Shown: piece by piece, positions 3,099 through 62,931 of the stretch
How the letters are laid out: each line of letters begins with the position of its first letter
How positions within the stretch are numbered: the first letter of the stretch is position 1
DNA from: Alphaproteobacteria bacterium
Lineage (GTDB): Bacteria > Pseudomonadota > Alphaproteobacteria > CALMVH01
Length of the DNA: 64,000 bases
NCBI GenBank assembly: GCA_965199335.1
Contig: CBDAQZ010000001.1
Coordinates: 71,102-135,101, forward strand
Reading direction: 5' to 3'
The notes under the pieces: generated by a model
Told to the model about the DNA's origin: nothing
The model's input: only the letters and a program-made list of their open reading frames with translations
The model's database searches: none
Made by a program: the position numbers and the translations under genes

Positions 3099-6000
3099 TT
3101 ACCAGTTGTACTTCACGCCCGCCTGGACCGTGTGATCCAGCTCGTGCTCGCGAATATCGGCATCGTATGACAGCGTCGCGCTCAGATTGGGGTTGAAGGC
3201 GGCGGTCATGCCGGCGCCAAGCAACGCGGCGTCCCGGCCCGGATGCACGCCCGAGATGCGGAAGCCCGCGGCGGGGGCGCCGGTGAAGCTTTCGCTCAAC
3301 GCCACATTGGTCGCCATGAAATCGTGCAGGTAGGCGGCTCTGATTTCGGGCGTCAGGGCGGTACCGTTCTTCGTCATCAGCGTCAGGTCTGCCCGTATCC
3401 CCGCCAGCGAACGCAGGGCGTTCAGGTTCGTGCCGTTGGTGTCGAAGTCCAGCCCGGCGACCGGCGAGCCGCTGGTGGCGTACCGGTTCTGGTGGATGTT
3501 GTCGTATTCGACGCCGATACGCGGCACCAGCGTCAGCTTGCCGCTGGTCAGTCCCTGCGGAACCGAGAAAGCATGGCTCAGTCCTGCCTCGGCGCTTAGC
3601 TCGTCGCCGTCATGGCGGGATGTCTGCTGGTAGCCCGTACCCGATGCCAGCGGCAGGTAGTCGCTGTCGTGATAATCGTTGAAGGCGTAGCCGACCGCGG
3701 CATCGAACACCATCGGGATGGGGTTCAGCTTGGCGCTGCCGTAAAGAGTGGCGCGGTAGGTATCGATATTGTTCTCGCCATTATCGCCGCTCAGGTTGAA
3801 GTCGGTATGCTCGTAGGCGACCGCGGCACCGATCAGCACGCCGGGTGCGACTTTCGTGTCGATGCCGCCGACGATGCCACCGGTGCGGTACTGGAATTCG
3901 GAGAAGCCGCTTTCGCCGCCGGTCTCGCCCAACACGCCGTAGCCGTGGACCCACAGGCTGGCCTGGTCTGCGCGCGTAGGGTTGCTGCCGCTGCAAGGGC
4001 CGAACATGGATTCGTCGGTCCTGCCCACAGGAACGTCGAACGTGCCGGGCAGGCCGGTCATCGCCATGCGCGTGGTGGTCAGGCCCTGGCATTCGTTCAT
4101 GCGCTCGACGATGAAATTCTGGAAGCTGGTCAGATTGGCAAGGTCGATGGTGCCGATATCGGCACGCAGCTCACCCAGCGCGCCTGCGACCAGCGCGCGC
4201 GGCGCATCGGCAAGCGAAGGACCGAAGATGTTGACCAGACCCTCGGCGAAGGCGCTGCTCGGCGCTACGCCCGGCAGGATCGACTTGATCGCGCCATCGA
4301 CGTTGCTGGTGTTCGGTGTCGAAGTCGCGCCCGGCGGCGGGGCCGCAAATATGGCTTCCGGACTGGTCACCGTCAGCTCTACCGCGTTCGGCAGATACGT
4401 CTCGGTGAAGAACGTCCCGGTGGAGGTCGCCGTGGCAGTGGCGAACTGGCCAGTGATGCCGTTGTTCGCGGTCAGGACGGTATATTGCTTGCCCAAGGCA
4501 TAGCTGCCTGGATCGTTGACGATCGAAAGCGTGCCGTTCAGCGCGGCGGTGCCGTTCACGGCCAGGACGCTGTTGCTGGTCGGGGTGACCCTGATCGTCA
4601 GGACGCTGTTCTGCGCCTGCGTGTAGTTGCCGTTGACGGTCAGCGCACCGATCGCCGTGCCGGGATTGACAGTGCCGTTATTGGTCAGCGCGCCGACGAT
4701 CGTGCCGTAGCCCATCAGCGTGCCGCCGCTGGCCACGGTCACCGGGCTGGTCAGCATCGCGGCCGAACCGGGCGTATCGCCTACCTGAAGAGTGCCTGCC
4801 GAGACGGTCGTACTGGCGAAGCTGCTGGCATTGTTCAGGGTCAGCGATCCGGCCGTGGACTTGATGAGCGCGCCGGTGCTCGAGACGGTTCCGGTAAAGG
4901 TGCCGGCATCGGCCGTCAGCGTACCGCCTGTCGAGGTGATCGCACCGCTGCCGGAAAGGGCGGACGCCTCTTGGTCGAAGCCGTTCATGGCAAAGGTCGC
5001 GCCGCTGGCGATGGCGAGGCCGGCGGGCCCGGCGGCATTGCTTGCGCCGAGCGCCAGCGTGCCGGCGTTGACGTTGGTCACGCCGCTATAGGTGTTCGCG
5101 CCGGACAGCGTCAGCGTACCCGCCGTGTTCTTGATCAGGTTGCCCGCGCCGCTGTAGACGCCCGAGAACGTACCGGATGCGACGGTCAGCGCGCCGCCGG
5201 TGGTTGTGACCGCACCCGACCCGGTCAAGGCGGTGACAGTCTGGTTGAAAGTGCCTAATGCCACCGTGCCCGCATTGCCGACCGCCAGCGTACCCGCGGC
5301 GATCGCATTGTCGACGCCGAGCGCCAGCGTGCCACCGTTCGCGTTGGTGCCGCCGCTATAGGCGTTGCCGGCGTTGGTCAGGGTAACGGTGTGCGTGCCT
5401 GCTGTGTTCAATGCACCGGTACCCGTCAACGCGCCGCTATAAGTATAGGAATTGCCGAGGCTGGTCAGCGTGCCGCCGCCGGCCGCAAGCGTCGCCGCAT
5501 TTCCGATCGTGATGCCGGCAGCCGATGCCCCCAGTGCGCCGCCGTTGAACGTCACGATGCCGCTACCCAGCGAGGCATTGTTGCCGGCGTTGATCGTGCC
5601 GGCGTTGATCGTGACCGCGCCGGTATAACCGGTTGCGCCGCTAAGGGCCTGCGTGCCGGTGCCGTTCTTGATCAGCGCACCGGTTCCCGTGATCGTACCT
5701 GCGTAGGTGTAGGCGCCACTGCCTGCCAGTGTAAGTGTGCTGGCGCCCGCCAGAACGGAACCGGCGTTGTTGCCGTTCAAACCGTTGATGGTCGGACTGA
5801 AGCCGTTTAGGTTCACCACGGCCGCCGGACCGTTCACGTTCACCGTTCCGGTGCCGAGCGCGGCGACGTTGGCGTAGGTCGCCGTCGTATTGCTGTTGAT
5901 GAAGGCACCGCCGGTAAAGGTGTTCGCGCCCGAGACGGATACGCTGCCGGTACCGGTCGAGGAGGACAGGATCAGCCGTCCTGCACCGCTTACGACGCCC

Positions 6001-7454
6001 GATAGCGTATCCGCGTTGCCGTTGGTATCGACGGTGCCGTTGCCGGTCAGCGTTATATTGTTGCTGATCGTGGTTCCGGCGCTCGTCTGGATCGTGCCGC
6101 CCGCGCCGCCGAAGGTGATGGCGCTGCCAAGGTCGCTGGCGTTGGTGACTCCGGCCAGCGTTGCCGCGTTGTTGATCGTCAGGGCGCCGGTATAGTTGTT
6201 CGCGCCCGAAAGCGTAACCGTGCCGCCCAGCACCTGCACCGCGCCGGCGCCGCTGATAGCGCCCGAGTACGTGCCCGTACCGGTGTTCGTGAACTGAAGC
6301 GTTCCTGCATCCGCTACGCCGTTGTTGATCGGCAGGCTGGCAGTGGTGACGTTCAACGTACCGCCCGAATTGATGACCGAGCCGCCGGTATAGGTGTTCG
6401 TCCCTGTCAGGGACAATGTACCGGTGCCGCCATAAGTCACGCTGCCGGATCCCGAGATGACGCCGGCAAAGGTGCTGCTGCCCGAACCGTCCACCGTCAG
6501 GGAATTCGCGCCCAGCGCCAGCGTGCTGGTCGAATCGCCGCTCAGATTGTTCAGCGTCTGGCTGAAGCCGTTGAAGTTGAACGAGCCGTTGTTGGTGAAG
6601 CTGACACCGCTGGATTGCGCCAGCGTGTTGGCGCTCCCCGCGACCAGGGTGCCACCTGTTATGGTGGTCGAACCCGTATAGGTGACCGCCTGCGTCAGGG
6701 TCAGCGTGCCACCTGTCAGGGCGAAGTTGCTGCCCGCGCCCGAGATGACGCCGTCATAGGTCGTGGTCGACCCCGCGCCGCCGACCGACAGGTTGGAGCC
6801 GGTGCCGCCCAGCATGATCTTTTCCGAGCCGCCGCTGGTATCCGAGATCGAGCCGATGATGTTCGTACCGGTCGTCTGGCTTAAATCCAGCGTGCCGCCG
6901 GCGCTGCTGTAGGCGCCCATGATCGTGGCTGCATTGCCGTTGACGATCAGCGAGCTGTTGCCGATCGAAACGCTGCCGCTGAAAGTCAGGTTGCCGTTCG
7001 TGGTATTGAAGCTTTCACCACCGGTCGAGGTGTTGGTCAGCGTTCCGATGGTCAGCGTCGACCCCGTGCCGGTCAGATCGAACGTCTGGTTGGCCGTGGA
7101 CGAATTCGTCAGCGTACCGATATTGAACGAAACCGCGTTGCCTTCGAGGAAGGTGTATGAGACGCCGCCGTTGAACAGCAGGGTGTTGAGCGGATTGCTG
7201 GTATTGGCAAAGGTGATCGCCGACGTCTTGGTGACCGCCGCGGAGTTTCCGAACACCGCAGTATCCGCCGCGCCCGGGGCGTTGCCGGTATCGTAGTTGC
7301 TGCCGAGGTTGAAATTGCCGTTGCTGGTAGTCGAACCCGCCCCATCATACGTATCTGTCGCCGCCATGGCTTCCATGGGTGATCCAACGGCGACAAGCGT
7401 TAATGCAGTGCCCGCGAGAAGGATGGTCTGGAGGCGGCGGCTGAAACGGGGCAT
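3099..7454 (-). CDS. Type Va autotransporter (passenger with PATR-type G/T/S-rich beta-helix repeats plus C-terminal beta-barrel translocator)
   Basis: 1451 aa. Signal peptide, then dozens of GTGTLTLSGANTYTGGT-like repeats. The C-terminal roughly 280 aa is a beta-domain ending ...VKYNW; a terminal aromatic is typical of autotransporter barrels. Confidence 0.9.
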   Translation of the reverse strand: MPRFSRRLQTILLAGTALTLVAVGSPMEAMAATDTYDGAGSTTSNGNFNLGSNYDTGNAPGAADTAVFGNSAAVTKTSAITFANTSNPLNTLLFNGGVSYTFLEGNAVSFNIGTLTNSSTANQTFDLTGTGSTLTIGTLTNTSTGGESFNTTNGNLTFSGSVSIGNSSLIVNGNAATIMGAYSSAGGTLDLSQTTGTNIIGSISDTSGGSEKIMLGGTGSNLSVGGAGSTTTYDGVISGAGSNFALTGGTLTLTQAVTYTGSTTITGGTLVAGSANTLAQSSGVSFTNNGSFNFNGFSQTLNNLSGDSTSTLALGANSLTVDGSGSSTFAGVISGSGSVTYGGTGTLSLTGTNTYTGGSVINSGGTLNVTTASLPINNGVADAGTLQFTNTGTGTYSGAISGAGAVQVLGGTVTLSGANNYTGALTINNAATLAGVTNASDLGSAITFGGAGGTIQTSAGTTISNNITLTGNGTVDTNGNADTLSGVVSGAGRLILSSSTGTGSVSVSGANTFTGGAFINSNTTATYANVAALGTGTVNVNGPAAVVNLNGFSPTINGLNGNNAGSVLAGASTLTLAGSGAYTYAGTITGTGALIKNGTGTQALSGATGYTGAVTINAGTINAGNNASLGSGIVTFNGGALGASAAGITIGNAATLAAGGGTLTSLGNSYTYSGALTGTGALNTAGTHTVTLTNAGNAYSGGTNANGGTLALGVDNAIAAGTLAVGNAGTVALGTFNQTVTALTGSGAVTTTGGALTVASGTFSGVYSGAGNLIKNTAGTLTLSGANTYSGVTNVNAGTLALGASNAAGPAGLAIASGATFAMNGFDQEASALSGSGAITSTGGTLTADAGTFTGTVSSTGALIKSTAGSLTLNNASSFASTTVSAGTLQVGDTPGSAAMLTSPVTVASGGTLMGYGTIVGALTNNGTVNPGTAIGALTVNGNYTQAQNSVLTIRVTPTSNSVLAVNGTAALNGTLSIVNDPGSYALGKQYTVLTANNGITGQFATATATSTGTFFTETYLPNAVELTVTSPEAIFAAPPPGATSTPNTSNVDGAIKSILPGVAPSSAFAEGLVNIFGPSLADAPRALVAGALGELRADIGTIDLANLTSFQNFIVERMNECQGLTTTRMAMTGLPGTFDVPVGRTDESMFGPCSGSNPTRADQASLWVHGYGVLGETGGESGFSEFQYRTGGIVGGIDTKVAPGVLIGAAVAYEHTDFNLSGDNGENNIDTYRATLYGSAKLNPIPMVFDAAVGYAFNDYHDSDYLPLASGTGYQQTSRHDGDELSAEAGLSHAFSVPQGLTSGKLTLVPRIGVEYDNIHQNRYATSGSPVAGLDFDTNGTNLNALRSLAGIRADLTLMTKNGTALTPEIRAAYLHDFMATNVALSESFTGAPAAGFRISGVHPGRDAALLGAGMTAAFNPNLSATLSYDADIREHELDHTVQAGVKYNW

Positions 7455-7634: not shown

Positions 7635-8564
7635 ATGTCTCAGCCCGATCGTCGAACAGTCCTGCGTCTCATGGGCGCTCTCAGCGTTGTGGCATTTGCC
7701 GGTGAGTCGCCGCTGGGCGCGCAATATGACTGGCGCCATGATGGGCCGGAAACCAGACCCCATGCTCCTGTCGCCGCGAAGCCGCACAAGGAAACTATCC
7801 AGGGCCGCCCCTTCTGGACCGGGACCGAAGAAGCCAAGGCCAGCGCGCGGGTAACGATGGAAGGGTGGGTGTTGCAACCCAGCGTCGATACGCGCCAGAG
7901 CATGGAGATTTATTCGGAGCGCCATCCGCTTCTGGGCGGTCTTGCTCAGCTTGTCGGCGGCGGCGGTGTTTTTGCGCATCTGTATTTCGGCATTCACGAT
8001 GCGAAATCGTCGATCTATGTCCATGGCTTCAACATCGACCCGGACGGCAATCGGCTGGAAGCCTTCGATCCAGGCGGCACGCTCAAGATGGTGGCGCTGA
8101 CGCCAAGGCAAAGCGAGGATGACCGCCAGAGGCATGGCCACAGGCCTTTGCCGCATCAGGCGCTCGATAGCGTTCAGGTCGGTTCATCGGCACAGTTGCT
8201 GGGCCGTATTCTCGATCTCGGGGCGGCGGTCAATCGGGCGGATATTCCTTATCATATGTTGCTGACGAATTCGAACGGGCTGGCGGCGGCGGTGTTCAAT
8301 ATTGTCCAGCCCGGACGTACCGATTGCTCGACCCATAGCTGCCCGGCGTTGCTGGCTGCTGGAGGGGGCCATCTCGTTCCCGGCGTCGATTCCGGCATCG
8401 CGGCAAAGGTCGGCAAGCTGGGTCGCGTGTATGAAAGCCTGGCGCTTAGCGGCGTCGGAATGATCGACCTGGCCAGCCGGTTCAATCAGGAGTCCAACCT
8501 GCAGATACTGGCCAACCTCGACCGGGCGCCTGTTCGGGCGCAAGTCCTGGGCTTGAACACCTAA
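7635..8564 (+). CDS. Hypothetical exported protein, possible Tat substrate
   Basis: 309 aa. The N-terminus [19 protein letters not shown] resembles a twin-arginine signal. A GGAG motif lies upstream. The overlapping minus ORF 7560-8156 has junk composition. Confidence 0.5.
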
Positions 8565-10108: not shown

Positions 10109-10837
10109 ATGGCACAAACATCTCGGCCAGATTTAATCTTGTTCGACATCGGACAGGTAATTGTGCCATATGATGATCATAAGTTGATTGAAAATATCGC
10201 TGCTCGTTGTAGCGATCCCGAAGCTTCCACTGAGATCAAATCATATTTAACGACCGACTGGAAAGCTTTACAGACAGGGGCAATGGCAGACGAACGATTA
10301 CATCAGAAGTTCGTAATCGGTCTTGGTTTCGATGGTAGTTTTAAGGACTTTCAGCAAGTCTGGTGTGCTCACACAGCACGCGATCCTGCGATGGAAACCC
10401 TTGTACGTGAAGTCGAGAAGACGACGGCAACAGCTTTGTTATCCAATGCAACAAAAATCCACATGCAACATTTTACCTCCAATTATGAGTTGATTGGGCG
10501 GATGAATTCTAATGGCAATGCTCATTTTTCCTGTTTGATGGGAGCCGTAAAACCTGACAGAGAAGCGTTCGAAATTACTCTTGATAGTGAAAGCCGGCGA
10601 TTGGGACGCCATATAAGTCCGGAAAAGACGCTTTTCATCGATGACATTTCGCAGATGACAGAGGGCGCAAAAGCAGTTGGAATGGATACAATTGTTTTCA
10701 CTGGAATTGCAGCTTTGATACCCGCTCTCGTGTCTCGCTGTGTACCAATCGGAGTGGCTGGCGTTAATCTACCAACCACCGCTTGGGCAGGAGCACGTGC
10801 CGGTATTATTGGTCATGATTCTACCAAGCCAATCTGA
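10109..10837 (+). CDS. HAD-superfamily hydrolase (variant motif I FDIGQV; motifs SNAT / K / LFIDD present)
   Basis: 242 aa. HAD motifs II-IV are recognisable. GC is about 42%, against about 63% in the flanks. Confidence 0.7.
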   Translation: MAQTSRPDLILFDIGQVIVPYDDHKLIENIAARCSDPEASTEIKSYLTTDWKALQTGAMADERLHQKFVIGLGFDGSFKDFQQVWCAHTARDPAMETLVREVEKTTATALLSNATKIHMQHFTSNYELIGRMNSNGNAHFSCLMGAVKPDREAFEITLDSESRRLGRHISPEKTLFIDDISQMTEGAKAVGMDTIVFTGIAALIPALVSRCVPIGVAGVNLPTTAWAGARAGIIGHDSTKPI

Positions 10838-10887
10838 CTCCATGACACGCGCAGTTTAAACCAGTATAAGGTCTGCAAAACAGCGTC

Positions 10888-11391
10888 ATGGAGACCGGCA
10901 TGATAAGAAAAATCTATAACAGGATAGTGAACCTGTCTCCTGCGGTCGTGCTGGTTATCGGCCTCGCTTTCATGCTTTCGGGTTTCTTTTTCCAGACCGA
11001 TCTTGGCTACGACGATGCGCCGATTGCAACCTCCTACTCCTTGTCTCTCGGGGCAAACTGCGAGAGCGACTACAAGCAATGCCATGTCAGGCCGCGGGTT
11101 GTAGTGGGCTATCGTATCGAAACCACCCGCAACGAGGTCGTCGCCTTCATGCCCGGCATGGACGGGCTGATGGACAAATACAACGAATGCACCATCTGGA
11201 GCGCATCCGACTGGCAGTGCGAGGCCGGCCGTATCTCGATGCATGACGGGCTTATCACTCACAATGAGTTCGAGACCGACCACGATATCTATTATGTCCC
11301 GAAGATCGCCTGGAAAATGGCGAAGCTGCACATCCTGCCGCTGAATTCCGTGCGTCATTCGCCCCCGCCGAAATCGGTTCACGGCACCTAG
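10888..11391 (+). CDS. Hypothetical membrane-anchored protein (N-terminal TM helix, four Cys in the C-domain)
   Basis: 167 aa, in the same low-GC island. The antisense ORF 10813-11727 has junk composition. Confidence 0.5.
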   Translation: METGMIRKIYNRIVNLSPAVVLVIGLAFMLSGFFFQTDLGYDDAPIATSYSLSLGANCESDYKQCHVRPRVVVGYRIETTRNEVVAFMPGMDGLMDKYNECTIWSASDWQCEAGRISMHDGLITHNEFETDHDIYYVPKIAWKMAKLHILPLNSVRHSPPPKSVHGT

Positions 11392-11443
11392 CCGGAACCA
11401 AATTGCTTCACCGGTCTTTCTCTTCTCGAACCAGGAGGAAGAC

Positions 11444-13880: not shown

Positions 13881-13900
13881 ATTTAGTTACTAGACTAAAT
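13881..13900. promoter_or_regulatory. Perfect 7-bp inverted repeat ATTTAGT-N6-ACTAAAT; candidate ArsR operator
   Basis: The sequence is ATTTAGTtactagACTAAAT. It lies 52 bp upstream of the arsR-family start and overlaps the first ATG of the divergent desaturase ORF. Confidence 0.45.
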
Positions 13901-13913
13901 GATACGAGTTTGC

Positions 13914-14813
13914 ATGACCTGCCTTTCGACGGCCCGCCTGATTGCCGAACCGGAAACGTCCGCGATCGATGGCGTTGTCGTCTGGGCACCGGTGCGGTCA
14001 TTGTGGGTAGGTGGCATGACCCTGGCAGCGCTTGTTTTATCGCCCTTTTACACGACACCTGGCGCGATCCTGCTCTTTCTTGTCACAAGCGCGGTGACAT
14101 TATGCGCCGGGCATTCCATCGGTTTGCATAGGCTCCTGATCCACCGCAGCCTGTCCGCCCCCTTATGGGTCGAGCGTGTGCTGATCTATCTCGGCACTCT
14201 GGTCGGGATGGCGGGGCCGCTCGGCATGGTCAGGTTGCACGACACCCGCGACTGGGCGCAGCGGCAGACGCACTGCCACGACTTGCATGCGCATCGTGCC
14301 GGTTGTTTTCGGGATGCGTGGTGGCAGATGCATTGCCGTCTTGTCCTGGTGCATCCGCCGCGCTTCGTGCCGGAAGCGCATCTGGTGGACGATCCTTTCA
14401 TAGGCTGTCTGGAAGCAACCTGGATGCTGCAGCAGCTGCCCTGGGCCATCCTGTTCTTCTGTATCGGGGGCATGCCGTGGCTGGTCTGGGGAATTGCAAT
14501 GCGTGTCGCCGTGTCGCTGACCGGTCACTGGCTGGTGGGACATATCACACACAGGCGCGGCCATCAGGGCTGGGCCGTGGATGGCGTCGCCGTACAGGGC
14601 TACAACCTGCCGCTCGCTGCGCTGGTCACGTTCGGCGAGGCTTGGCACGGCAATCATCACGCCTGGCCGGACTCGGCGCGGTTGGGTGTCGAGAAGGGGC
14701 AGGCCGATCCAGGTTGGTGGATACTCCTGGTCATGCAGCGATTGCGGCTGGTATCCGACCTCAGGCAGCCATCGGATTTGACGCCGCGCGAGGGGCTGCG
14801 CCGGATAGATTGA
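13914..14813 (+). CDS. Membrane fatty-acid desaturase (acyl-CoA/acyl-lipid Delta9-type; His boxes HRLLIH, HDLHAH, HGNHHAWP)
   Basis: Three histidine-box motifs and hydrophobic segments are present. The start could be 13899, but 13914 avoids the operator palindrome. Confidence 0.8.
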   Translation: MTCLSTARLIAEPETSAIDGVVVWAPVRSLWVGGMTLAALVLSPFYTTPGAILLFLVTSAVTLCAGHSIGLHRLLIHRSLSAPLWVERVLIYLGTLVGMAGPLGMVRLHDTRDWAQRQTHCHDLHAHRAGCFRDAWWQMHCRLVLVHPPRFVPEAHLVDDPFIGCLEATWMLQQLPWAILFFCIGGMPWLVWGIAMRVAVSLTGHWLVGHITHRRGHQGWAVDGVAVQGYNLPLAALVTFGEAWHGNHHAWPDSARLGVEKGQADPGWWILLVMQRLRLVSDLRQPSDLTPREGLRRID

Positions 14814-26096: not shown

Positions 26097-26957
26097 CTAG
26101 ATCAGGTCGAAGCGTTTTATCAGCGTATCGACGTTGCGGCAGACCTCGAATGTTTCGCCACCGCGCGCCAGGTAGTGGTACCTGACCTTCGGCAGGGCCG
26201 GGTCGTAAAGCGACAGGAGCTCGGGCTGGAAGGTGAATTGCAGATGGTCGGAGAACGCCCATTTGGTAACGGCGTTCAGATATAGCCGGCTCATTCTAAG
26301 CTGTTCCCGCTGCTCGGGAGTCAGCGCGGTTTGTCCGGGGGCGATCTTCAGGGCCGGAAACGTATGCCCGAAATTGATCGAGGCCGGATCGGTCACGCTG
26401 TAGACCATGTTGCGGCACCCCGCGCGGGCGAATGCCGTGTTGGCGGCAAAAACCAAATCGAACGACGTCTCGTATTTCCCGGCCTCAAGCTCATCTACCA
26501 AACCCTTGGTAACGTTGTATGTGCTCTTGAAATGCTCCCGGACTGCCGGGTTCGAGCCGAAATACAGCGTCAGGGAGACGTCACCGGGCAGGCCGTCGGC
26601 CAGTCCCACCGGCGAGGCATAGGCAAAGAATACGTCGTTGCGCCAGTCGACCATGCGGCTGCTGGACCAGTATTTCTGTTCGCGCAACGAGCGACAATTG
26701 CTGCGATCGCCGAACAGGATCGCCATGCCCTGCGGCGGCGGTGAATACCAGCCATCCGCCAGCACGTAGGGCTTCGCTGCCATGCGATGAAACCACTCGT
26801 CGTGAAACTTCTTTTCGCTGATGCCGCTTTTGCCGATCAGATCGTCCAGGGTTTCCGTAAGGGCTTCCATGGCCAGTACGCGCGTTACGTTGAAGCTTGG
26901 CATGTCCACACAGTGACATATGGTTGCACAGACGCAAGTCGCGTGGTTATTGAACAT
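26097..26957 (-). CDS. Hypothetical protein (no family recognised); start uncertain (26957, 26903 or later)
   Basis: 286-aa ORF with protein-like composition after residue about 19. It is convergent with purS and divergent from the alkA-like gene. Confidence 0.45.
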   Translation of the reverse strand: MFNNHATCVCATICHCVDMPSFNVTRVLAMEALTETLDDLIGKSGISEKKFHDEWFHRMAAKPYVLADGWYSPPPQGMAILFGDRSNCRSLREQKYWSSSRMVDWRNDVFFAYASPVGLADGLPGDVSLTLYFGSNPAVREHFKSTYNVTKGLVDELEAGKYETSFDLVFAANTAFARAGCRNMVYSVTDPASINFGHTFPALKIAPGQTALTPEQREQLRMSRLYLNAVTKWAFSDHLQFTFQPELLSLYDPALPKVRYHYLARGGETFEVCRNVDTLIKRFDLI

Positions 26958-27599
26958 ATGTTGCTGTCCGAAGTTCCTGAAATTGCTGAAGGTATTCTGA
27001 ATCTGGCCGCAACCGAGCCCGGTTTTGCAACGGCGCTTGCGGAAAACGGCCCGCTGCGATTCGAATTGAAGGCCGGTGGCTTTACAGGTTTGTTGCGGGT
27101 CATACTGGGGCAGCAGGTGTCGGTGCTGGCGGCAGATGCGATCTGGCGCAAGATCAGCGCCGCCATGCCGATAGTTTCACCCGCTGCGATGGTCGAAGTC
27201 GATGACGATGTGTTGCGAGGATGCGGCTTCAGCCGGCAGAAGATACGCTATACCAAAGGGCTGGCCGCCGATATCCTGTCCGGCGCCCTCGATCTCGATG
27301 GCCTGTCGCGGCTTGATGACGAAGCGGCGATCGCCGCCATCACGAAATGCATCGGGCTCGGTCGTTGGACGGCCGAGAATTATCTGCTGTTCTGCGAGGG
27401 CAGGTCCGATCTGTTTCCCGCCAAGGATTTGGCCATATTGATCGGCATGCAGATGTTGTCCGGTGCGCCGGTACGGCCAACGCATACCGAAGCCTGGGCC
27501 CAGGCCGAACGCTGGCGGCCGCATCGCAGCGCCGCCACACTGCTGATCTGGCATCATTACATCGGCATGGTGGCAAGGCGGAAGAAGGTCAGGGCGTAA
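26958..27599 (+). CDS. HhH-GPD superfamily DNA glycosylase (AlkA-like 3-methyladenine DNA glycosylase II)
   Basis: LLRVILGQQVSVLAADAIW and the HhH-GPD motif IGLGRWTAENYLLF are present. The ORF-track start at 26787 is an upstream extension overlapping the divergent gene. Confidence 0.75.
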   Translation: MLLSEVPEIAEGILNLAATEPGFATALAENGPLRFELKAGGFTGLLRVILGQQVSVLAADAIWRKISAAMPIVSPAAMVEVDDDVLRGCGFSRQKIRYTKGLAADILSGALDLDGLSRLDDEAAIAAITKCIGLGRWTAENYLLFCEGRSDLFPAKDLAILIGMQMLSGAPVRPTHTEAWAQAERWRPHRSAATLLIWHHYIGMVARRKKVRA

Positions 27600-27981: not shown

Positions 27982-28740
27982 CTAAGGCGCGAACTGCTCC
28001 TTCAGGATGCGTTCCTGAAGCGTGTGATGCGGGTCGAACAGGATGGTCAAATTGATCGCATGATCCTGCACGATCTCGACTGAAGCAACTTCGCGTACCT
28101 CGGTCACGCCGGCTACGGCACTGACCGGTCTTTTGTCGGGCTCATGGATTTCCACATTGATCGTGACCTGGTTCATCAGCAATGCTCCGCGCCAGCGCCG
28201 GGGACGAAACGCGCTGATCGGGGTAAGCGCCAGCAGGTTCGAGCCTAAGGGGATAACGGGGCCGCCTACGGACAGGTTATAGGCTGTACTGCCGGCAGGT
28301 GTTGCACACAGGACACCGTCGCAGATCAGTTCGGGAATACGCGCAACGCCATCGATGGTCACGCGCAACTTCGCCGCCTGACGCGTTTCGCGCAGAAGTG
28401 AAACCTCGTTCATCGCCAGTGCGGTTACGACTTCGCCCTGATAACGTGTCGCGATCATTTTCAACGGGTGGAGGGTCAAGGCCTGCGCCGTTTCCACGCG
28501 CTCCAGCAGGTTATCCTCGTCGTATTCGTTGAGCAGAAAACCAAGCGTTCCACGGTTCATGCCATAGACCGGAATGTTATCGCCCATGAACCTGTGCTGG
28601 ACTTCCAGCATCAGACCATCGCCTCCAAGTGCGACGATGCGATCGGCATCTTCGGGGGCGCAACCGCCGTAACGGGCTTCGAGCCGTTCCTTCGCGGCTT
28701 TCGCATGATCCGCATCGGAGGCGATGAACCCGATTTTCAC
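27982..28740 (-). CDS. nadK: NAD kinase
   Basis: VKIGFIASD...GGDGLML...NEVS...[15 protein letters not shown] are NadK motifs. The GTG start at 28740 overlaps the pyrE TAG stop (taGTG). The 391-aa ORF in the track is an upstream read-through extension. Confidence 0.85.
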
Positions 28741-29435
28741 TAGGCTTCGACCGATTCCCGGCCGCCATGCGCCGCCGACCACAATATGGGATCGTGCAGG
28801 AACAGTTCGACCTCGGCCAGGGTATTGGTGTCGAACCGTTTCTCCGCTTTGGCGACGGCCAGAACATCCCACCAGGTGCAGAGGTGGTGCAGCTTCAGCC
28901 CGCCCGCCTTCAATTGCGCCTCGGCGCCTTCGTAAATGCCGTAGAAGAATACCGAGAAGGCATGATCGACGACCGCGCCGGCGCTGCGCAAAACTTCGGC
29001 GAAGGTGATCTTGCTCTTGCCGTCGGTGGCCAGATCCTCGACCAGCAGAACGCGGCTGCCTTCCTCCACCACGCCTTCGATCTGCGCCATACGCCCGAAA
29101 CCCTTCGGTTTCTTGCGGATATACTGCATCGGCAGGCCCATGCGGTCGGCGATCCATGCCGCATAGGGAATACCGGCGGTCTCGCCGCCGGCGATCGAAT
29201 CGATCGAGCCGAACGGCACGTTGGCCAGGATGGTCGAAACGGCGAAGCTGGACACCATGGAGCGCACATCGGGATAGGCGATGATCTTGCGGCAGTCGAT
29301 ATAGACCGGGCTGGCCCAGCCGGAGGTGAAGATAAAGGGCTTGTCGACGTTGAACAGCACCGCCTCGATATCCAGAAGGGCCTTTGCGGTCAGCCGCGCC
29401 ATCAGTGCGGGATCGGTGAAGCCGGGAACGATCAT
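28740..29435 (-). CDS. pyrE: Orotate phosphoribosyltransferase
   Basis: [15 protein letters not shown]...[12 protein letters not shown] are PyrE motifs. A GGAGG ribosome-binding site lies 5 nt upstream of the ATG at 29435. The track ORF is extended upstream by read-through. Confidence 0.9.
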
Positions 29436-29650
29436 TCTGCCTCCATCATGCGCCAGTTCAGGGTCTCGCCGGCGCGGAATGGTTGGATCATATCGCCCGT
29501 CGCGCCAACGGCAATAGATTCCGGTATCGGCAGAGGTTCGCGACGCAGGGTAACGGTGCCATGGTTCAGGGGCAGGCCGTAATACCGGGCGCCGTTCTCG
29601 CTGGCATGCACATGCCAGTCGTCGGGGCGGCGGATGGTAAGTTCGGTCAT
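29432..29650 (-). pseudogene. pyrC: In-frame internal-deletion remnant of homodimeric (type II) dihydroorotase; keeps only the N-terminal ~15 and C-terminal ~55 residues
   Basis: The 72-aa ORF is [15 protein letters not shown]|[55 protein letters not shown]. The N-terminus aligns to E. coli PyrC ..[15 protein letters not shown]. The C-terminus aligns to ..[48 protein letters not shown]. All catalytic-core residues are missing. It makes ATGA overlaps with both the upstream WaaL-like stop and the pyrE start. Confidence 0.6.
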
Positions 29651-30798
29651 GGGTTTTCCGTACGTCGTGCGGCGAGCAGAAGCATCGAAGTGAGAAGGGC
29701 GAGGCAGGCCAGCCACCAGCCCTGCCAGATACCAAAGGCAAAGGCGGCGACGGCCAGCGCGCCGGCGGATACCGCCAGCGCGAACATGCGCGGGATACGA
29801 TCGAGCTGGCCAATTTTCTCGAACAGCCTGACCATGAAATACAGCGTCGCGCAGACCCCGACAAAGCCGAGCTCAAGCCATATCTGCAGGAAGAAATCGT
29901 GCGGATGCAGTGGCGGCGTGTTGCCGCCCAGCGGCAGGAAATCGGGCGGCAGGTCGGCGGTCGGGATCGCGCGCGACCCCTCTAGGCCCAGCCCTACAAG
30001 CGGCCAGTGTAGGATGCGGTCGGCGGTGAAATGCCAGATCTGGATGCGATGACGAAAGGAGAATTGCAGGCTTTCCTTCTGGTCCAGCCCCCATTTGGTC
30101 AGCAGCAGGCCGACCGGAATCGCCAGCGCAAAGCCCGCGGTGGTGATAGCCGACAGGCCGCGCTGTACGAGTTTCGGCGCCAGCCACGCCACCCCGAACG
30201 TCACAATCCCGAGTACCATGCCGACCATCGCCGAATGGCTTTGCAGGAAAAGGATGCCCACGGTGTAAAGGCCCAGCATCGCCAGTGCCGACCAGCGCAT
30301 GCCCTCGCGAAAACGCACCAGCGCGGCAGGCCATAGGAAAAGGGAGAAACATACGACCTCGCGGTCATAGGCGTTGACCGGGATCGTAGGCCAGTGCTTG
30401 TGCATATGCTTGATCGGGCCGCCCAGCGCGATATCGCCAAGGCATATCAGCAGGCCGAAAAGCAGGCTGAACAACAGGGCCCGCTGGGAGATCAGCACGT
30501 CGCGCACCGGCATGCCGCGAATGGCAACCGGGATGACCAGGGCCGAGGCGGCGATTGCAATCAACTCAGGCAATTTCTCCCATGCCATGATACCGGCCTT
30601 TGCCCACAGGCAGGACGCCGCCGCCCATGCCAGCAGTACGCCCAGGGCAATTGTCAGCGTACGATCCGGCACCGGCCAGCGCTGGTGGTCCAGACGGTAG
30701 GTGATCAGCGATCCCAGCCCCAGCACGAACAGCAGCGGTGCAAGGCCCAGCGGGTCCAGACCGCAGATCGGACCGATCAGGACGCACGCGCCCGTCAT
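29647..30798 (-). CDS. O-antigen ligase (WaaL)/Wzy_C-family integral membrane protein
   Basis: About 10 TM helices and the [14 protein letters not shown] motif (H-[NH]-x-[FY]-L-Q-x3-E-x-G of Wzy_C). Alternative starts are 30831 and 30858. Confidence 0.8.
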
Positions 30799-30811
30799 CA
30801 GATAACCGGTT

Positions 30812-31615
30812 TTACTTTGTATTCTGGGCATCTTTGGAGTCCGATTGCAGCAGCGCACGCGCCTTGATGCAGGTCAATAGCGGATAGAGGGCGGAGAACA
30901 GGGCGAGCGCCAGGCCGTAGACGCCTTCGCGGTAGCCCCGGCGGCTGAGATAGGATTTGTAGAAGCGTCCGAACACACGCCTTGTCGTCGCCCATTTACC
31001 GGGTATCTGGCCGGTCATTACCGCCTGTCGCGCGGCCAGGCTGGTGTAGCGGTTCAGGCGAGCATACATGTCGTCCAGGTCGTCGTCGACGAAATGGTCG
31101 ATGCCGTTGACCAGGCGGATGCGCGGGCCGGTCATCGTGACCTTGGGATGCACTAGGTCCTGGCCCCAGATCTTGTTGCCCTTGTAGAACAGGCAGCTTT
31201 TCGCGCCGACGCCGTTATAGGCGCCCCAGCCATGGCGAATCAGCCGGCCGCCGACATAGTTGTTGAAGGGAATGCCGAATACGCCCGGCTCGGCTGTCGG
31301 CAATACGGATTTGATTTCCTGCGCCAGTTCCGGCGTCACGCGCTCGTCGGCGTCCAGCTCGATGATCCAGGGGCCGGCGCAGGCGTCGATGCCGGCCATG
31401 CGGCGGCTGCCCTCGTTCGGCCATGCGCCCTCGACCAGCCTTGCCTTGTATTCGAGGGCGATGGCGCGCGTGCGGTCGGTGCAGCGGTCCAGCACCACGA
31501 CGATTTCGTCGGCGAAGGCGACGCTGTCGAGGCAGGCGGTCAGGCGAGCCTCCTCGTTGTGCGCCACGATCAGCGCCGTCAGTGTTGTGGATGTCATGTG
31601 TGCGTCTTCTGCCAT
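30812..31615 (-). CDS. Family 2 glycosyltransferase (LPS core biosynthesis type)
   Basis: GT-A fold with LIVAHNEEARL...ELDADE (DXD). Confidence 0.85.
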   Translation of the reverse strand: MAEDAHMTSTTLTALIVAHNEEARLTACLDSVAFADEIVVVLDRCTDRTRAIALEYKARLVEGAWPNEGSRRMAGIDACAGPWIIELDADERVTPELAQEIKSVLPTAEPGVFGIPFNNYVGGRLIRHGWGAYNGVGAKSCLFYKGNKIWGQDLVHPKVTMTGPRIRLVNGIDHFVDDDLDDMYARLNRYTSLAARQAVMTGQIPGKWATTRRVFGRFYKSYLSRRGYREGVYGLALALFSALYPLLTCIKARALLQSDSKDAQNTK

Positions 31616-32562
31616 AGACGTGTCGCCGCTTCCACGGCATCGTCGACGGTGATGCGTTTCATCAGGGCCAGCGCCGCCTCATCGTCGCCATCCGCGCACA
31701 AATCGCGCTCTCGCAGCGGATCGTCTGCCTTGGACATATAGGCGGCGTGTTCGCCCCAGGGGCGGTATTTCCAGGCAACGCCGGGGCCGAACAGGGCCAG
31801 CGTCGGAACGCCGGCTGCTGCGGCCAGGTGGGTGAGACCGGAATCATTGCCGATATAGAGGTCGGCGCGTTCGATGCAGGCGGCGGTCACCGCGATGTCG
31901 ATGGTGCCGGTTAGGTCGATGACCTGCTCGGCAGGCAACGCGGCAAGGATCGGCTTTACCGTTTCATGGTCGCGCTCGTCTCCCAGCAACAGGACCCGTG
32001 CACCCGGCATCAGGCTGCCTGCCGCGGTCAGCCGCAGCGCCAATTGTCCGTAAAGCTCGACCGGCCATTTCTTGCCGTAGGAGTTTGCACCCGGGGCCAT
32101 TGCCAGAATGTACCCGTGCGTATGCTGGTTCTTGGGCACGAGCTCCTCGGCGTAGTGCAGGGCCTGCTCGCCATGCCAGAGGCGCGGGGCAGGCGCGGTA
32201 TCGAGTCCCAGCAAGGCGCCCAGCTCCTCGACCTTGTGCGGGCGGTTTGTCGGTTTTTTCCAGATCACGCGCTTTTTCGCCCGGATCAGCCGCGACACCG
32301 CGCTTTGCCGCAGATCGACGACCATATCCCAGCTCGTACCCACGGTTTCGCGCCACAAACTCAGCCAATGGCCCGACCACGGGCGTTTTTTCAGCTCGAT
32401 CACGTGCCTGACCTGCGGCACATCCCAGAAAAGGGCCGCGGGCAGGGGGCCGCAGACGACCGTGAAGTCGGCCTTCGGGTGCCTTTCCTTGAGCGCACCG
32501 AGGATTCCGGTCGACAAAATCGCGTCGCCCAGGCGGTTTGAAGTGATGAACAGGATTTTCAC
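31594..32562 (-). CDS. ADP-heptose:LPS heptosyltransferase (GT9 family)
   Basis: MKILFITSNRLGDAILSTGIL...GNDSGLTHLAAAAGVPTLALFGP is the GT9 (WaaC/WaaF/RfaQ) signature. Confidence 0.85.
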   Translation of the reverse strand: MKILFITSNRLGDAILSTGILGALKERHPKADFTVVCGPLPAALFWDVPQVRHVIELKKRPWSGHWLSLWRETVGTSWDMVVDLRQSAVSRLIRAKKRVIWKKPTNRPHKVEELGALLGLDTAPAPRLWHGEQALHYAEELVPKNQHTHGYILAMAPGANSYGKKWPVELYGQLALRLTAAGSLMPGARVLLLGDERDHETVKPILAALPAEQVIDLTGTIDIAVTAACIERADLYIGNDSGLTHLAAAAGVPTLALFGPGVAWKYRPWGEHAAYMSKADDPLRERDLCADGDDEAALALMKRITVDDAVEAATRLWQKTHT

Positions 32563-48665: not shown

Positions 48666-49018
48666 GGTTGGTAATCGAAGCTGTAATGGCCGTTGGTGTG
48701 ATGGGTATCCACCGATACCACGTTCCATCTCACCTCGTAATGCCCGGGTTTGAGCGTCGTGCCAATCGGTGCGATCAGCTGCTTGGCATTACCGGCATCC
48801 ACAGTGACCGTACCCAGCTGAACGGCCTGACCATCGGCGGCGAACAACGCGATGTGCGAAAAGGTAGGTTCGATCGCTTCGGTATAGACGATGCGGATTT
48901 CCGTTGGCGCTGCCGCCACCGTCGATCCGACACGCGGCGTTGCCTCGTCCAGGAAGGCGTGGGCATCGGCAGCCCCCGCGGAAAGGCATGCCGCCGCTAT
49001 CAGGATGATATGTTTCAC
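48662..49018 (-). CDS. copC: Copper-resistance protein CopC (periplasmic copper-binding)
   Basis: The mature N-terminus is HAFLDEATP... (His1 ligand). The CopC fold is 118 aa. The GTG start overlaps the upstream stop (GTGA). Confidence 0.9.
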   Translation of the reverse strand: MKHIILIAAACLSAGAADAHAFLDEATPRVGSTVAAAPTEIRIVYTEAIEPTFSHIALFAADGQAVQLGTVTVDAGNAKQLIAPIGTTLKPGHYEVRWNVVSVDTHHTNGHYSFDYQP

Positions 49019-49949
49019 AGGCTGTCTCCTCCGAAAATGGGTTGGCCGAAAACGGCCGGCAGAAGATCGTCGAGGAAGACATGGAACTGGCCGATGACGC
49101 CTGTGCCATGCTGACTATTGGCGTTGATCGGAACGATCGCCTCCAGTCCGAACTGCCAGGTATCTGCCAGGTAGATGACGCCCGGATTGACCGTACCGCC
49201 GAAATCGTGATCGCCGTGGTCCAGCCCGACCGATAGCGGGAATTCCACTGTCGGGACCAAGTGATTTACGAAGCTAGGCAAACCGTAATCTTTCACCGTG
49301 GATTTGAGATAGGGCATGCTGTATTCCAGCGCGATTCCAGGCTGGAATTCGTCACCTTCTGTCCGGTCCTGCGGAATGGCGAGACCCAGCGTGCCGGTGA
49401 CCGCAAATGGCCTCAATAACGCTACGCTGTCTGGTAGATCGCCCATGCCCTTGCCGAAATAGAAAGTCGGCGTGTAGGTGCTGTTGCGATCGACACCGAT
49501 GCGGGACGAGCCGCTGCTGCCGACATCGACCACAAGGCCGGCCGACATCAGGATCTCGTGTTCGTCGTTTTCATAGAACTGGTATTTTCCCGGACACTTC
49601 GAGGTTCTGGAATCCGTAGCTTCCCGGTTCGCCCTTCGCGGTCTGCGAAGTCCCACCCCGGCGCGATGCCGACGGCGAAATTGGGCGCCACCAGAACGTC
49701 CAGTTCGGCGCCGACATCGGTTTCGCTTGGGATGTTGCCGCTGTCGTCTCGCGAATTGCGCTGCCAGCCCACAGTCGGCAGCGAGATCTCGCTGGCGGCT
49801 GCAGGATCGTCGGTGGCAAGAGTTGCAGGGAACACGCGGTCGCCGGCAATGCCGTGCGCGTGGGATGATGCGGGCAGCAACAGCGCCGCCGTAGCCAATA
49901 GCAGGGCAGGCGACGCAAGGCGCGCCTTCCCGTGATTTAGGAAAGTCAT
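49015..49949 (-). pseudogene. Outer-membrane beta-barrel-like protein gene disrupted by two +1 frameshifts in about 50 bp (49560-49620)
   Basis: Frame A is signal peptide MTFLNHGKARLASPALLLATAALLLPASSHA ... GWDFADREG. Frame B is EPGSYGFQNLEVSG. Frame C is KYQFYENDEHEILMSAGL ... to the TGA at 49015, which is coupled to copC. Each frame is protein-like only on its own side of the junctions. Confidence 0.5.
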
Positions 49950-50012
49950 GACGTCTCCGGAAGTTCGTTTTCAAGTAAGTGCGAGCGCGCCGGCCGAGTA
50001 CCGGCGGAAATA

Positions 50013-60828: not shown

Positions 60829-62922
60829 ATGAGCCAAGTGCAGACGCGTGATGAGGCCGGTGCCGAGCAGAGTTCGGCAGGAATCGAATCGCTGGCCATC
60901 AACACGATTCGCACTGTATCTATGGACGCGGTGGAAAAGGCCAAATCCGGCCATTTCGGTACGGCGATGGGCGCCGCTCCTGTCGTCTACGAGTTGTGGC
61001 AGAACCATTTGCGCTACGATCCGGCCGATCCGCTTTGGCCGAATCGCGACCGCTTCGTGCTGTCCGTCGGTCACGCATCGATGCTGCTGTACTCGATCCT
61101 TCACCTGACGGGCGTCAGGGAAGTCGATCACAAGGGACAGCTTACGGGTAACGAGGCCGTCTCGATCGAGGACATCAAGAAGTTCCGCCAGGTCGACAGC
61201 AAGTGTCCCGGGCACCCCGAATTCTACCTGACGTCGGGTGTCGAATCCACGACAGGTCCTCTGGGGCAGGGTGTCGCCAACAGCGTCGGCATGGCGATCG
61301 CGGCCAAGATTCAGGCCAACTATTTCAACAAACCCGGCTTCGAGCTGTTCAACTACGACGTCTACGCGCTGGCCGGCGACGGCTGCATGATGGAGGGCGT
61401 GAGCCAGGAAGCCGCCTCGCTGGCCGGCCACCTGCAGCTGTCCAACCTCTGCTGGATCTACGACAGCAACCACGTCACCATCGATGGCGACACCAAGATC
61501 AGCTTCAACGAAAACACGCTGGACCGCTTCAAGGCATATGGCTGGCACACGATCGAGGTGATGGATGCCAACGATATCGGGGCCATGCGTGAAGCGCTGA
61601 ACGAATTCAAGCGCACCGAAGGCAAGCCGACATTCATCCTGGTGCACAGCATCATCGGCTATGGCGCGCCCAAGGCGCAGGGTACCAACGATGCGCACGG
61701 CGAAGGCATCACCCATGACGATCTGATCGCGGCAAAGAAGTCGTATGGCTGGCCGCTCGACAAGGAATTCTTCGTTCCCGACGAGGTGGTGCAGCATTTC
61801 GCCGGGGGCATCGGCCAGCGCGGCAAGCAGTTGCATGCCGCCTGGAGCCAACTGGCCTCACAATACGCTTCGGCCAACGGCGAACTGGCGACGCACCTGA
61901 TGCAGATGCAGAAGCGCGAGATGCCGGCGGGCTGGGACAAGGGCCTGCCTGTCTACGAGCCGGACGAAAAGGGCATCGCCACGCGTGAGTCGTCCGGCAA
62001 GGTGCTGGAAATCCTGGGCAACAACGTGCCGTGGCTGGTCGGTGGCGCCGCCGATCTGGTCAAGTCGACGAAGACCTTCCTCAAGGGGCAGGGCGCCATG
62101 TCGCCGACGGAAGTCGGCCGCAACATCAATTATGGCATCCGTGAACACGCCATGGGATCGGTCACCAACGGCCTTGCCGTGTCGGGCATGCGTGCGTTCG
62201 ATTCGACCTTCCTGATCTTCAGCGACTACATGCGCAATCCCATCCGCCTGTCGTCGCTGATGGAGATTCCGGTCATCCACATCTTCACGCACGATTCGAT
62301 CGGCGTGGGCGAGGACGGCCCGACCCATCAGCCGGTGGAGCAGATCGGCTCGCTGCGCATGATCCCGGGCATGATCGTGCTGCGTCCCGCGGATGCCAAC
62401 GAGGTGGTCGAGGGGTGGCGGGTGATCATGGCGCAGACGCATCATCCGGTGTGCCTGATCCTGTCGCGCCAGAACCTGCCCACGTTCGACCGCACCAAAT
62501 ATGCCGCTGCAAGCGGCATCGCCAAGGGCGCCTATGTGATGCGCGACAGCGAAGGCGGCGAACCGCAGGTGATCCTGATCGCAACCGGCAGCGAAGTGCA
62601 GCTGATCGTGAACGCGCAGAAGGAACTGGAAGCCAAGGGCATCCGTTCGCGTGTCGTATCGATGCCTTCATGGGAGCTGTTCGAGAAACAGGAGCAGGCC
62701 TATCGCGATTCGGTCTTGCCGCCGCATATCAGGGCGCGTGTATCGGTCGAACAGGCCTCCAACATGGGTTGGGAGCGCTGGGTCGGCATTGACGGCGCCA
62801 AGATCGGCATGCACACCTTCGGCGCCTCCGCGCCGCTGAAAGACCTGCTGACCAAATTCGGTTTCACCGCGGAAAAGATCGTCGAGGCAGCCGTCGATCA
62901 GGTTGCCAAGAACTCAAAGTAA
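60829..62922 (+). CDS. tkt: Transketolase
   Basis: SGHFGTAMGAAPV (TPP-binding), RDRFVLSVGHASMLLYSILHLTG. 697 aa. Confidence 0.95.
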   Translation: MSQVQTRDEAGAEQSSAGIESLAINTIRTVSMDAVEKAKSGHFGTAMGAAPVVYELWQNHLRYDPADPLWPNRDRFVLSVGHASMLLYSILHLTGVREVDHKGQLTGNEAVSIEDIKKFRQVDSKCPGHPEFYLTSGVESTTGPLGQGVANSVGMAIAAKIQANYFNKPGFELFNYDVYALAGDGCMMEGVSQEAASLAGHLQLSNLCWIYDSNHVTIDGDTKISFNENTLDRFKAYGWHTIEVMDANDIGAMREALNEFKRTEGKPTFILVHSIIGYGAPKAQGTNDAHGEGITHDDLIAAKKSYGWPLDKEFFVPDEVVQHFAGGIGQRGKQLHAAWSQLASQYASANGELATHLMQMQKREMPAGWDKGLPVYEPDEKGIATRESSGKVLEILGNNVPWLVGGAADLVKSTKTFLKGQGAMSPTEVGRNINYGIREHAMGSVTNGLAVSGMRAFDSTFLIFSDYMRNPIRLSSLMEIPVIHIFTHDSIGVGEDGPTHQPVEQIGSLRMIPGMIVLRPADANEVVEGWRVIMAQTHHPVCLILSRQNLPTFDRTKYAAASGIAKGAYVMRDSEGGEPQVILIATGSEVQLIVNAQKELEAKGIRSRVVSMPSWELFEKQEQAYRDSVLPPHIRARVSVEQASNMGWERWVGIDGAKIGMHTFGASAPLKDLLTKFGFTAEKIVEAAVDQVAKNSK

Positions 62923-62931
62923 GGGGCTCAC

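Follow-up and report, generated by a model that had tools for sequence, protein, structure and literature searches.

How does a 72-codon open reading frame (ORF) that resembles only the two ends of dihydroorotase (DHOase, PyrC) come to lie immediately in front of pyrE, and is it a gene, a translational device or a relic? The ORF lies in a 64,000-nucleotide stretch of contig CBDAQZ010000001.1 (assembly GCA_965199335.1, positions 71,102 to 135,101), assigned to an alphaproteobacterium and here called the window, where it is wedged between a gene for an O-antigen-ligase-like (Wzy_C) membrane protein and pyrE. Our results support a model whereby the ORF is probably a dead pyrC that arose by one 828-bp in-frame deletion, with the neighbouring genes undisturbed and the encoded peptide a by-product. 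It is an ordinary gene remnant in a coupled operon and neither a new kind of gene nor a new system.

Results

The short ORF joins the two ends of a type II dihydroorotase

The remnant matched the TIGR00856 profile with E=9.8e-10 and 37.9 bits in two stretches, the C-terminal one covering profile positions 289-340 of 341. In a phmmer search against PDB chains, the DHOases of V. cholerae (5VGM, 2.7e-14) and E. coli (1J79, 4.4e-12) were each aligned in an N- and a C-terminal stretch, and tblastn with full-length PyrC of relatives against the window recovered the C-terminal part with 3e-23 and the N-terminal part with 2e-5. Judged by these searches, the similarity to type II DHOase is far above chance at both ends. 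An earlier, sequence-only reading of the stretch had proposed a PyrC remnant joining both termini, an idea to be abandoned if the E-values at both ends were at chance level; both termini proved significant. That reading also had the length and identity of the ORF right, but the ORF lies on the minus strand and its last two residues (AE) had been omitted.

The remnant is colinear with the first 15 (among them RRPDDWHVH) and last 57 residues of the homodimeric, E. coli-type enzyme (TIGR00856; 1J79, 5VGM), and it occupies the same site upstream of pyrE as pyrC does in relatives, but it is 276 residues short: the entire barrel is gone, and with it the carboxylated Lys, two of the His and the Asp. 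The HxH metal-binding motif on the first barrel strand is kept (DDWHVH, remnant residues 10-15) and is the sole metal or catalytic motif to survive; the carboxylated Lys, the second His pair and the catalytic Asp are absent. With 37.9 bits against a whole-protein equivalog cutoff of 292.95 bits for TIGR00856, the remnant is not a DHOase and, on these comparisons, cannot be an enzyme. It matched no Pfam family and hence not PF01979.

One gap accounts for the missing barrel

Protein and DNA alignments with pyrC of two close relatives, L081 and L082, place a single gap at PyrC residues 16-291, corresponding to 276 codons or 828 nt, and contain no further indel. The junction reads CAT|GCC (His15|Ala292) and lies at 29606/29605. 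Across four relatives, no more than 1-2 nt are common to the two breakpoint sequences, and beyond these no repeats or longer microhomology were found to account for the junction; the ends seem to have been joined illegitimately and not by recombination between repeats. The motifs AAKLYP (K99), HGE (H136), EHVT (H174) and GTDTAPH (D247), which we take to be the equivalents of E. coli Kcx102, His139, His177 and Asp250, all lie within the deleted stretch (residues 97-251 of the L081 and L082 proteins). The loss of the catalytic core, put at about 280 residues in the sequence-only reading, is borne out and amounts to 276 codons with the four catalytic motifs inside. Neither tblastn nor blastn found the deleted core anywhere else in the window. 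The reading frame of the remnant has no internal stop and no frameshift, although preservation of the frame has by itself a prior of 1 in 3.

Close relatives carry an intact pyrC at the same site

Relatives were chosen by a protein search with pyrE, which gave a set at 72-84% identity on contigs from ENA metagenome assemblies; the nearest four are L081 (84% identity of pyrE to the window), L082 (77%), L088 (74%) and L087 (73%). All four carry the order family 9 glycosyltransferase, family 2 glycosyltransferase, Wzy_C, pyrC, pyrE, nadK. Between Wzy_C and pyrE, each has an intact pyrC of 347-350 aa (Amidohydro_1) that scores 442-459 bits on TIGR00856, all above the 292.95 cutoff, so that a full-length orthologue stands at the syntenic site in 4/4 relatives, as expected if the window ORF is a pseudogene. 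The Wzy_C orthologues (385-399 aa) keep their position in all four, as do nadK orthologues of 252 aa. The string is preceded by glyQ/glyS and then by a CAF17-like gene on the opposite strand (glyQ and glyS are both present in L081 and L082, while the shorter L087 and L088 loci reach only the 3' part of glyS), and nadK is followed by HhH-GPD, purS and purC. At the level of the sequence, which was read for two of the relatives (L081 and L082), the start and stop of pyrC form the same ATGA overlaps with the neighbours as in the window.

Because 4/4 relatives carry this order with an intact pyrC, the adjacency of Wzy_C, pyrC and pyrE is ancestral, and the deletion therefore lies strictly inside pyrC and fused no modules. 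The comparison places the lipopolysaccharide (LPS)-type module beside pyrC-pyrE-nadK already in the common ancestor and marks the deletion as specific to the lineage of this contig. The sequence-only reading, according to which the deletion had fused an LPS-core module to pyrE-nadK, fails on this point, and so does the alternative it had named, a short ORF forming a distinct conserved family: none of the four clade relatives carries the short form, no same-length orthologues were found in related genomes, and the peptide is the single member of its 90% cluster. Its placement of the organism near Acetobacteraceae found no support either, since the window pyrE is only 55-65% identical to those of diverse Alphaproteobacteria among the matches listed in a scan of GTDB genomes with pyrE. 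Among the listed matches of the same scan, pyrC directly upstream of pyrE is widespread in more distant Alphaproteobacteria.

Two features of the relatives' loci are recorded here in their own right. In L087, glyS (1-1232) is split into two called ORFs of 340 aa and 326 aa, both matching PF02092, which is either an assembly frameshift error or a real disruption and bears on the trust to be placed in small indels of such assemblies. A HepT-like/nucleotidyltransferase (MNT) toxin-antitoxin pair adjoins purC in L088 only (10743-11408).

The remnant overlaps both of its neighbours

Both ATGA overlaps claimed in the sequence-only reading can be read directly from the DNA. The ATG of the remnant (29650-29648) shares an ATGA with the TGA of the Wzy_C gene (29649-29647), and the TGA of the remnant (29434-29432) shares another with the ATG of pyrE (29435-29433), so that the stop/start overlap typical of a member of a coupled operon is present on both sides (29650-29647 and 29435-29432). 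The Shine-Dalgarno sequence of pyrE, GGAGG, is at 29444-29440, within the final codons of the remnant and 4 nt ahead of the pyrE ATG. Given the two overlaps, translation of the remnant is plausible. No terminator-like site was found in 29400-29700 and no convincing promoter between the genes of the string, and the ATGA overlap leaves no intergenic space between the remnant and pyrE for a leader or attenuator of the rph-pyrE type.

The other members of the string are listed in Table 1. The family 2 glycosyltransferase gene lies upstream of Wzy_C in the same tightly packed string, and the Wzy_C gene may have its true start further downstream than the GTG at 30858. Downstream, the GTG start of nadK (28740-28738) overlaps the TAG of pyrE (28742-28740), giving TAGTG at 28742-28738. 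In a protein search, the window pyrE product was identical to the 231-aa protein P0004. Both pyrE and nadK are intact, with ratios of nonsynonymous to synonymous substitution rates (dN/dS) of 0.06-0.09 against L081, and this conservation argues that the downstream pathway is not decaying.

Table 1 Coordinates of the remnant, the genes of its string and short PyrC fusions on other contigs
Feature	Contig	Position	Strand	Basis or content
Family 9 glycosyltransferase (heptosyltransferase-like); opens the string, overlaps the next gene	Window	31594..32562	minus	ORF list; PF01075 in orthologues
Family 2 glycosyltransferase	Window	30812..31615	minus	ORF list; PF00535 in orthologues of L081, L082, L087, L088
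Wzy_C / O-antigen-ligase-like membrane protein, 403-codon ORF	Window	29647..30858	minus	PF04932 E=5.7e-16
pyrC remnant ORF, 72 codons + TGA	Window	29650..29432	minus	ORF list, translation, TIGR00856, alignments
Remnant codons 1-15	Window	29650-29606		PyrC residues 1-15, HxH motif included
Remnant codons 16-72	Window	29605-29435		PyrC residues 292-348
pyrE, orotate phosphoribosyltransferase, 231 aa	Window	28740..29435	minus	NF001729 359 bits (cutoff 245)
nadK, NAD kinase, 252 aa	Window	27982..28740	minus	NF003406 365 bits
P0128, 68 aa	L083	461-667		
P0128, 68 aa	L084	354-560		
P0128, 68 aa	L085	351-557		
P0274, 76 aa	L089	1048-1278		
P0370, 85 aa	L090	792-1049		
P0370, 85 aa	L091	628-885		
P0124	L086	96-509		

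Short PyrC fusions occur in a second lineage

A HMMER scan with the 72-mer over 1.84 billion representatives gave 377 matches, and a follow-up search was made with one of them, P0128. Most of the short matches listed are C-terminal PyrC fragments. Eleven, from the scan or the follow-up, are short in-frame fusions of N- and C-terminal PyrC pieces with various junctions (P0124, P0128, P0141, P0149, P0198, P0267, P0274, P0360, P0365, P0367 and P0370). P0128 has the same H|A junction as the window, and it is found as an identical protein in three samples, with identical coding DNA in two. On Xanthobacteraceae-like metagenome contigs, P0128, P0274 and P0370 are each the next gene after a class-1B-type pyrD; behind P0370 come an intact pyrE (NF001729, 387 bits) and then an amidase gene, behind P0128 a FAD_binding_5 gene. 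With intact pyrD and pyrE on either side of decayed pyrC remnants, this second lineage demonstrates that a pyrC next to pyrE can disappear. In P0370, a piece of the GTDSAPH region is in another frame, and the original frame resumes ahead of the native C-terminus. The contigs with P0274 (L089) and P0370 (L090) have nearly identical flanking DNA and different deletions, which points to independent decay events at one locus rather than to a conserved family.

As in the window, these contigs carry short ORFs that join the PyrC termini beside intact pyrimidine genes. They differ in that they belong to another lineage (44% identity), that the upstream gene is pyrD there and Wzy_C here, and that the junctions are several, different and independent, and not always coupled to pyrE. 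We considered P0128 as the type of a conserved mini-protein family and rejected this, because C-terminal fragments dominate the matches and the true fusions differ in their junctions; the L089/L090 pair, with nearly identical flanks and different deletions, speaks against it as well. All 98 of the 98 matches in the P0128 search are short, perhaps because the word index favours short sequences.

Every remnant seen with both termini keeps the frame on balance, in one case after two changes of frame, in a sample that is biased to in-frame ORFs since the query and the gene callers both favour these; out-of-frame examples exist (P0280, P0336). The set hints that the pyrC beside pyrE can be dispensed with and that in-frame remnants last. 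One could go further and propose that a decayed pyrC upstream of pyrE is repeatedly kept in Alphaproteobacteria as an in-frame short ORF, with the window as one case and P0128, P0274 and P0370 as three independent ones, because pyrE and the genes that follow would depend for their expression on the transit of ribosomes in cis, which we regard as rather doubtful; that such retention would instead be due to a role of its own for the peptide made of N- and C-terminal 'adjacent-domain' pieces is less likely.

Several further observations concern individual matches. P0367 resembles P0360 with a second internal deletion, and the stop of P0124 overlaps the start of a downstream zinc-type oxidoreductase gene by 4 nt. 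Directly downstream of P0274, a long, nearly perfect inverted repeat occupies L089 1290-1474 (GTCATCGCCCGGCTTGACCGGGCGATCC ... GGATTGCCCGGTCAAGCCGGGCAATGAC); it is similar to repetitive extragenic palindromic (REP) sequences or miniature inverted-repeat transposable elements (MITEs) and takes the site held by pyrE or another gene in other contigs. In the 72-mer scan, P0125, a giant protein of 2837 aa with about 28 near-identical tandem repeats of ~100 residues, each with a weak similarity (32%) to the PyrC C-terminal segment, was matched to that segment in 13 stretches, a similarity that may be spurious.

Other features of the window

A 1451-aa autotransporter gene at 3099-7454 (minus) encodes a C-terminal beta-domain (PF03797) and PATR repeats and has an unusual base composition, with GC content at second codon positions above that at first positions. 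A 286-aa ORF with no Pfam match lies between purS and the HhH-GPD glycosylase gene and has a 276-aa counterpart at the same place in L081. The longest ORFs of the two divergent genes there, 26097-26957 (minus) and 26787-27599 (plus), share about 170 nt at the 5' ends, and the real starts are therefore probably further in. Long ORFs of 240-446 aa with no Pfam match were noted at 395-1117, 1133-2473, 7635-8564, 13899-14813, 49015-49974 and 62914-63921; several have a GC content of 0.8-0.88 at first codon positions and a modest one at third positions, and they may be shadow ORFs of 62% GC DNA rather than genes.

Discussion

In our model, a single deletion of 828 bp would have taken codons 16-291, that is, the (beta/alpha)8 barrel with four of its metal and catalytic ligands, and the ends would have been joined at CAT|GCC with almost no microhomology, in one recent and lineage-specific step. 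Because the loss was internal and a multiple of three, the gene would have kept its own start, its own stop and the GGAGG of pyrE. Ribosomes that end the Wzy_C gene would reinitiate at the ATGA, read 72 codons and stop on the start of pyrE, leaving translation and transcription of pyrE, and of nadK coupled to it through TAGTG, undisturbed. The 72-residue peptide would most likely be a by-product without an enzymatic role, and DHOase activity would have to come from another gene elsewhere in the genome, failing which the cell would need external pyrimidines or orotate. A literature search for truncated pyrC pseudogenes, or for remnants that preserve coupling, found nothing specific.

Some observations could speak against this model. 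The usual signs of decay, namely a stop, a frameshift or extra substitutions, are absent from the remnant. Counting amino-acid changes between the window and L081, with L082 as outgroup and nine neighbouring genes pooled as control, the remnant has 6 window-specific and 7 L081-specific changes, compared to 144 and 250 in the pooled neighbours (Fisher p=0.56). Its dN/dS of 0.13 (window versus L081) is set beside 0.16 for the same segment and 0.12 for the barrel between two functional pyrC genes, and its 37.9 bits on TIGR00856 are within the range of 34.7-42.0 of in-silico cut-outs of the first 15 and last 57 residues from four functional PyrC proteins. Moreover, neither a Pfam scan of about 33 window ORFs nor tblastn with PyrC over the whole window found a second DHOase, the Pfam scan covering amidohydrolases as well. 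At the same time, the synonymous divergence to the nearest relative is saturated, with dS about 1.1-1.9, and without selection over most of this branch the remnant would have changed far more. The lack of measurable decay despite a saturated dS leaves two readings, which the data fit equally: a deletion that happened late compared with the split from L081, or a constraint on the frame.

If the frame is constrained, the short ORF might have been selected as a translational bridge, in which an in-frame run of ribosomes protects pyrE and the essential nadK, the peptide itself is irrelevant, and out-of-frame deletions are purged through lost coupling and Rho-type polarity. The chain of ATGA, ATGA and TAGTG overlaps, the pyrE Shine-Dalgarno sequence inside the remnant, the intact frame and the lack of extra decay are all consistent with such a bridge. 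The same can be said of the second lineage, in which the pyrC after pyrD has shrunk in at least three ways (P0128, P0274 and P0370), each running from native start to native stop, with the frame restored in P0370 after an out-of-frame middle piece. However, the strong GGAGG of its own may free pyrE from the need for coupling, the remnant in L090 ends 185 nt short of pyrE and is not directly coupled to it, the set of in-frame remnants is biased by a fused N- and C-terminal query and by called ORFs, with P0280 and P0336 as out-of-frame counterexamples, and a single in-frame deletion is expected by chance in 1 of 3 cases. We therefore consider a selected bridge unlikely here. A precedent for control of pyrE from an upstream ORF comes from E. 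coli K-12, in which the rph-1 frameshift ends translation of the upstream ORF prematurely and thereby reduces the expression of pyrE (PMC2784333). As described in that source (citing Jensen 1993 and Bonekamp 1984), the rph-1 lesion, like that of the window, lies in the ORF directly upstream of pyrE, the position at which ribosomes stop in this ORF sets pyrE expression, and the frameshift uncouples translation from a UTP (uridine triphosphate)-sensitive attenuator so that pyrE expression falls. The rph-1 case shows that the stop position of an upstream ORF can control pyrE expression, as a bridge would have it, but the analogy extends to polarity only: the window lesion is in frame, the native stop is kept and there is no intergenic attenuator. 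For these reasons no polarity is expected in the window, and we infer that the dead pyrC is translated without effect on the genes behind it.

A role for the peptide itself is harder to reconcile with the data. In DHOase, the N-terminal strand lies next to the C-terminal extension, and the two could in principle form a functional micro-protein; the intact ORF with its translation signals and without an excess of substitutions would fit this, as would the existence of other short fusions, including P0128 with the same H|A junction in three samples, and a dN/dS of 0.32 between P0128 and P0274, significantly under 1 (p=0.002) provided that the deletion is older than the split between the two. Yet the short form is missing from all four clade relatives and alone in its 90% cluster, the other mini-PyrCs differ in their junctions, with independent decay evident from the near-identical flanks and different deletions of L089 and L090, and the peptide has no Pfam family. 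An AlphaFold2 model of the 72-mer built from 75 sequences is mediocre (mean predicted local distance difference test score 73.7, predicted template-modelling score 0.44), and in Foldseek it superposes on DHOases only, and poorly (E 0.016, TMq 0.33, root-mean-square deviation about 4.9 Å); model and Foldseek search give no evidence for an autonomous fold. In type II DHOase, dimerization is through the barrel, and the two terminal pieces make up no more than an adjacent domain of two strands and an extension; in the E. coli enzyme, this minimal adjacent domain, attached to the barrel, consists of two antiparallel strands (PMC9771888). The retained part is accordingly not the dimer interface that the sequence-only reading had seen in its C-terminal segment, and its suggestion of a functional micro-protein, which finds no support in the model or among the clade relatives, seems to us highly improbable. 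Nor do we favour an origin of the deletion in assembly or consensus building, or as a structural variant that a fraction of a natural population carries and that was caught in a metagenome-derived contig. The source is a single contig of 529,973 bp with records in NCBI/ENA alone, the relatives come from ENA metagenome assemblies, which can err, as the split glyS in L087 shows, and a very young variant would explain the absence of decay. A clean loss of 828 bp with at most 2 nt of microhomology and no flanking repeat is nonetheless not what a repeat collapse leaves behind, and the identical P0128 protein in three independent samples demonstrates that such remnants are real in nature. Typical long-read errors are indels of 1-2 nt and not precise multi-codon deletions, which also counts against an artefact. 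We judge an artefact or partial variant very unlikely.

A dead pyrC raises the question of how the cell obtains DHOase activity. The window has 61.6% GC and encodes purL, purQ, purS, purC, gatB, transketolase, an autotransporter, a histidine kinase and a GGDEF protein, and looks like part of a normal free-living alphaproteobacterial chromosome, a lifestyle suggested by its genes for purine biosynthesis, the autotransporter and signalling. Redundant DHOases are documented in Proteobacteria, and PyrC2 of Pseudomonas complements the loss of PyrC (PMC10393844, PMC2290942). As reported in these sources, the set of PyrC, PyrC2 and PyrC' in Pseudomonas (Brichta 2004, cited in PMC10393844 and PMC2290942) is a precedent for the loss of one pyrC while the pathway is kept, whereas for the present organism we only infer a backup enzyme. 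By this analogy, a second DHOase gene elsewhere in the genome would be the more economical assumption.

Altogether, the locus would be a clean natural case of an in-frame internal deletion that kills a gene within a tightly coupled operon and leaves the neighbours undisturbed. An annotation pipeline would either call a hypothetical protein of 72 aa or score pyrC as present. Should the deletion be fixed and the genome lack a second DHOase, this free-living-type alphaproteobacterium would be a natural pyrimidine auxotroph, and such auxotrophy, if true, would be relevant to cultivation and to metabolic models built from metagenome bins.

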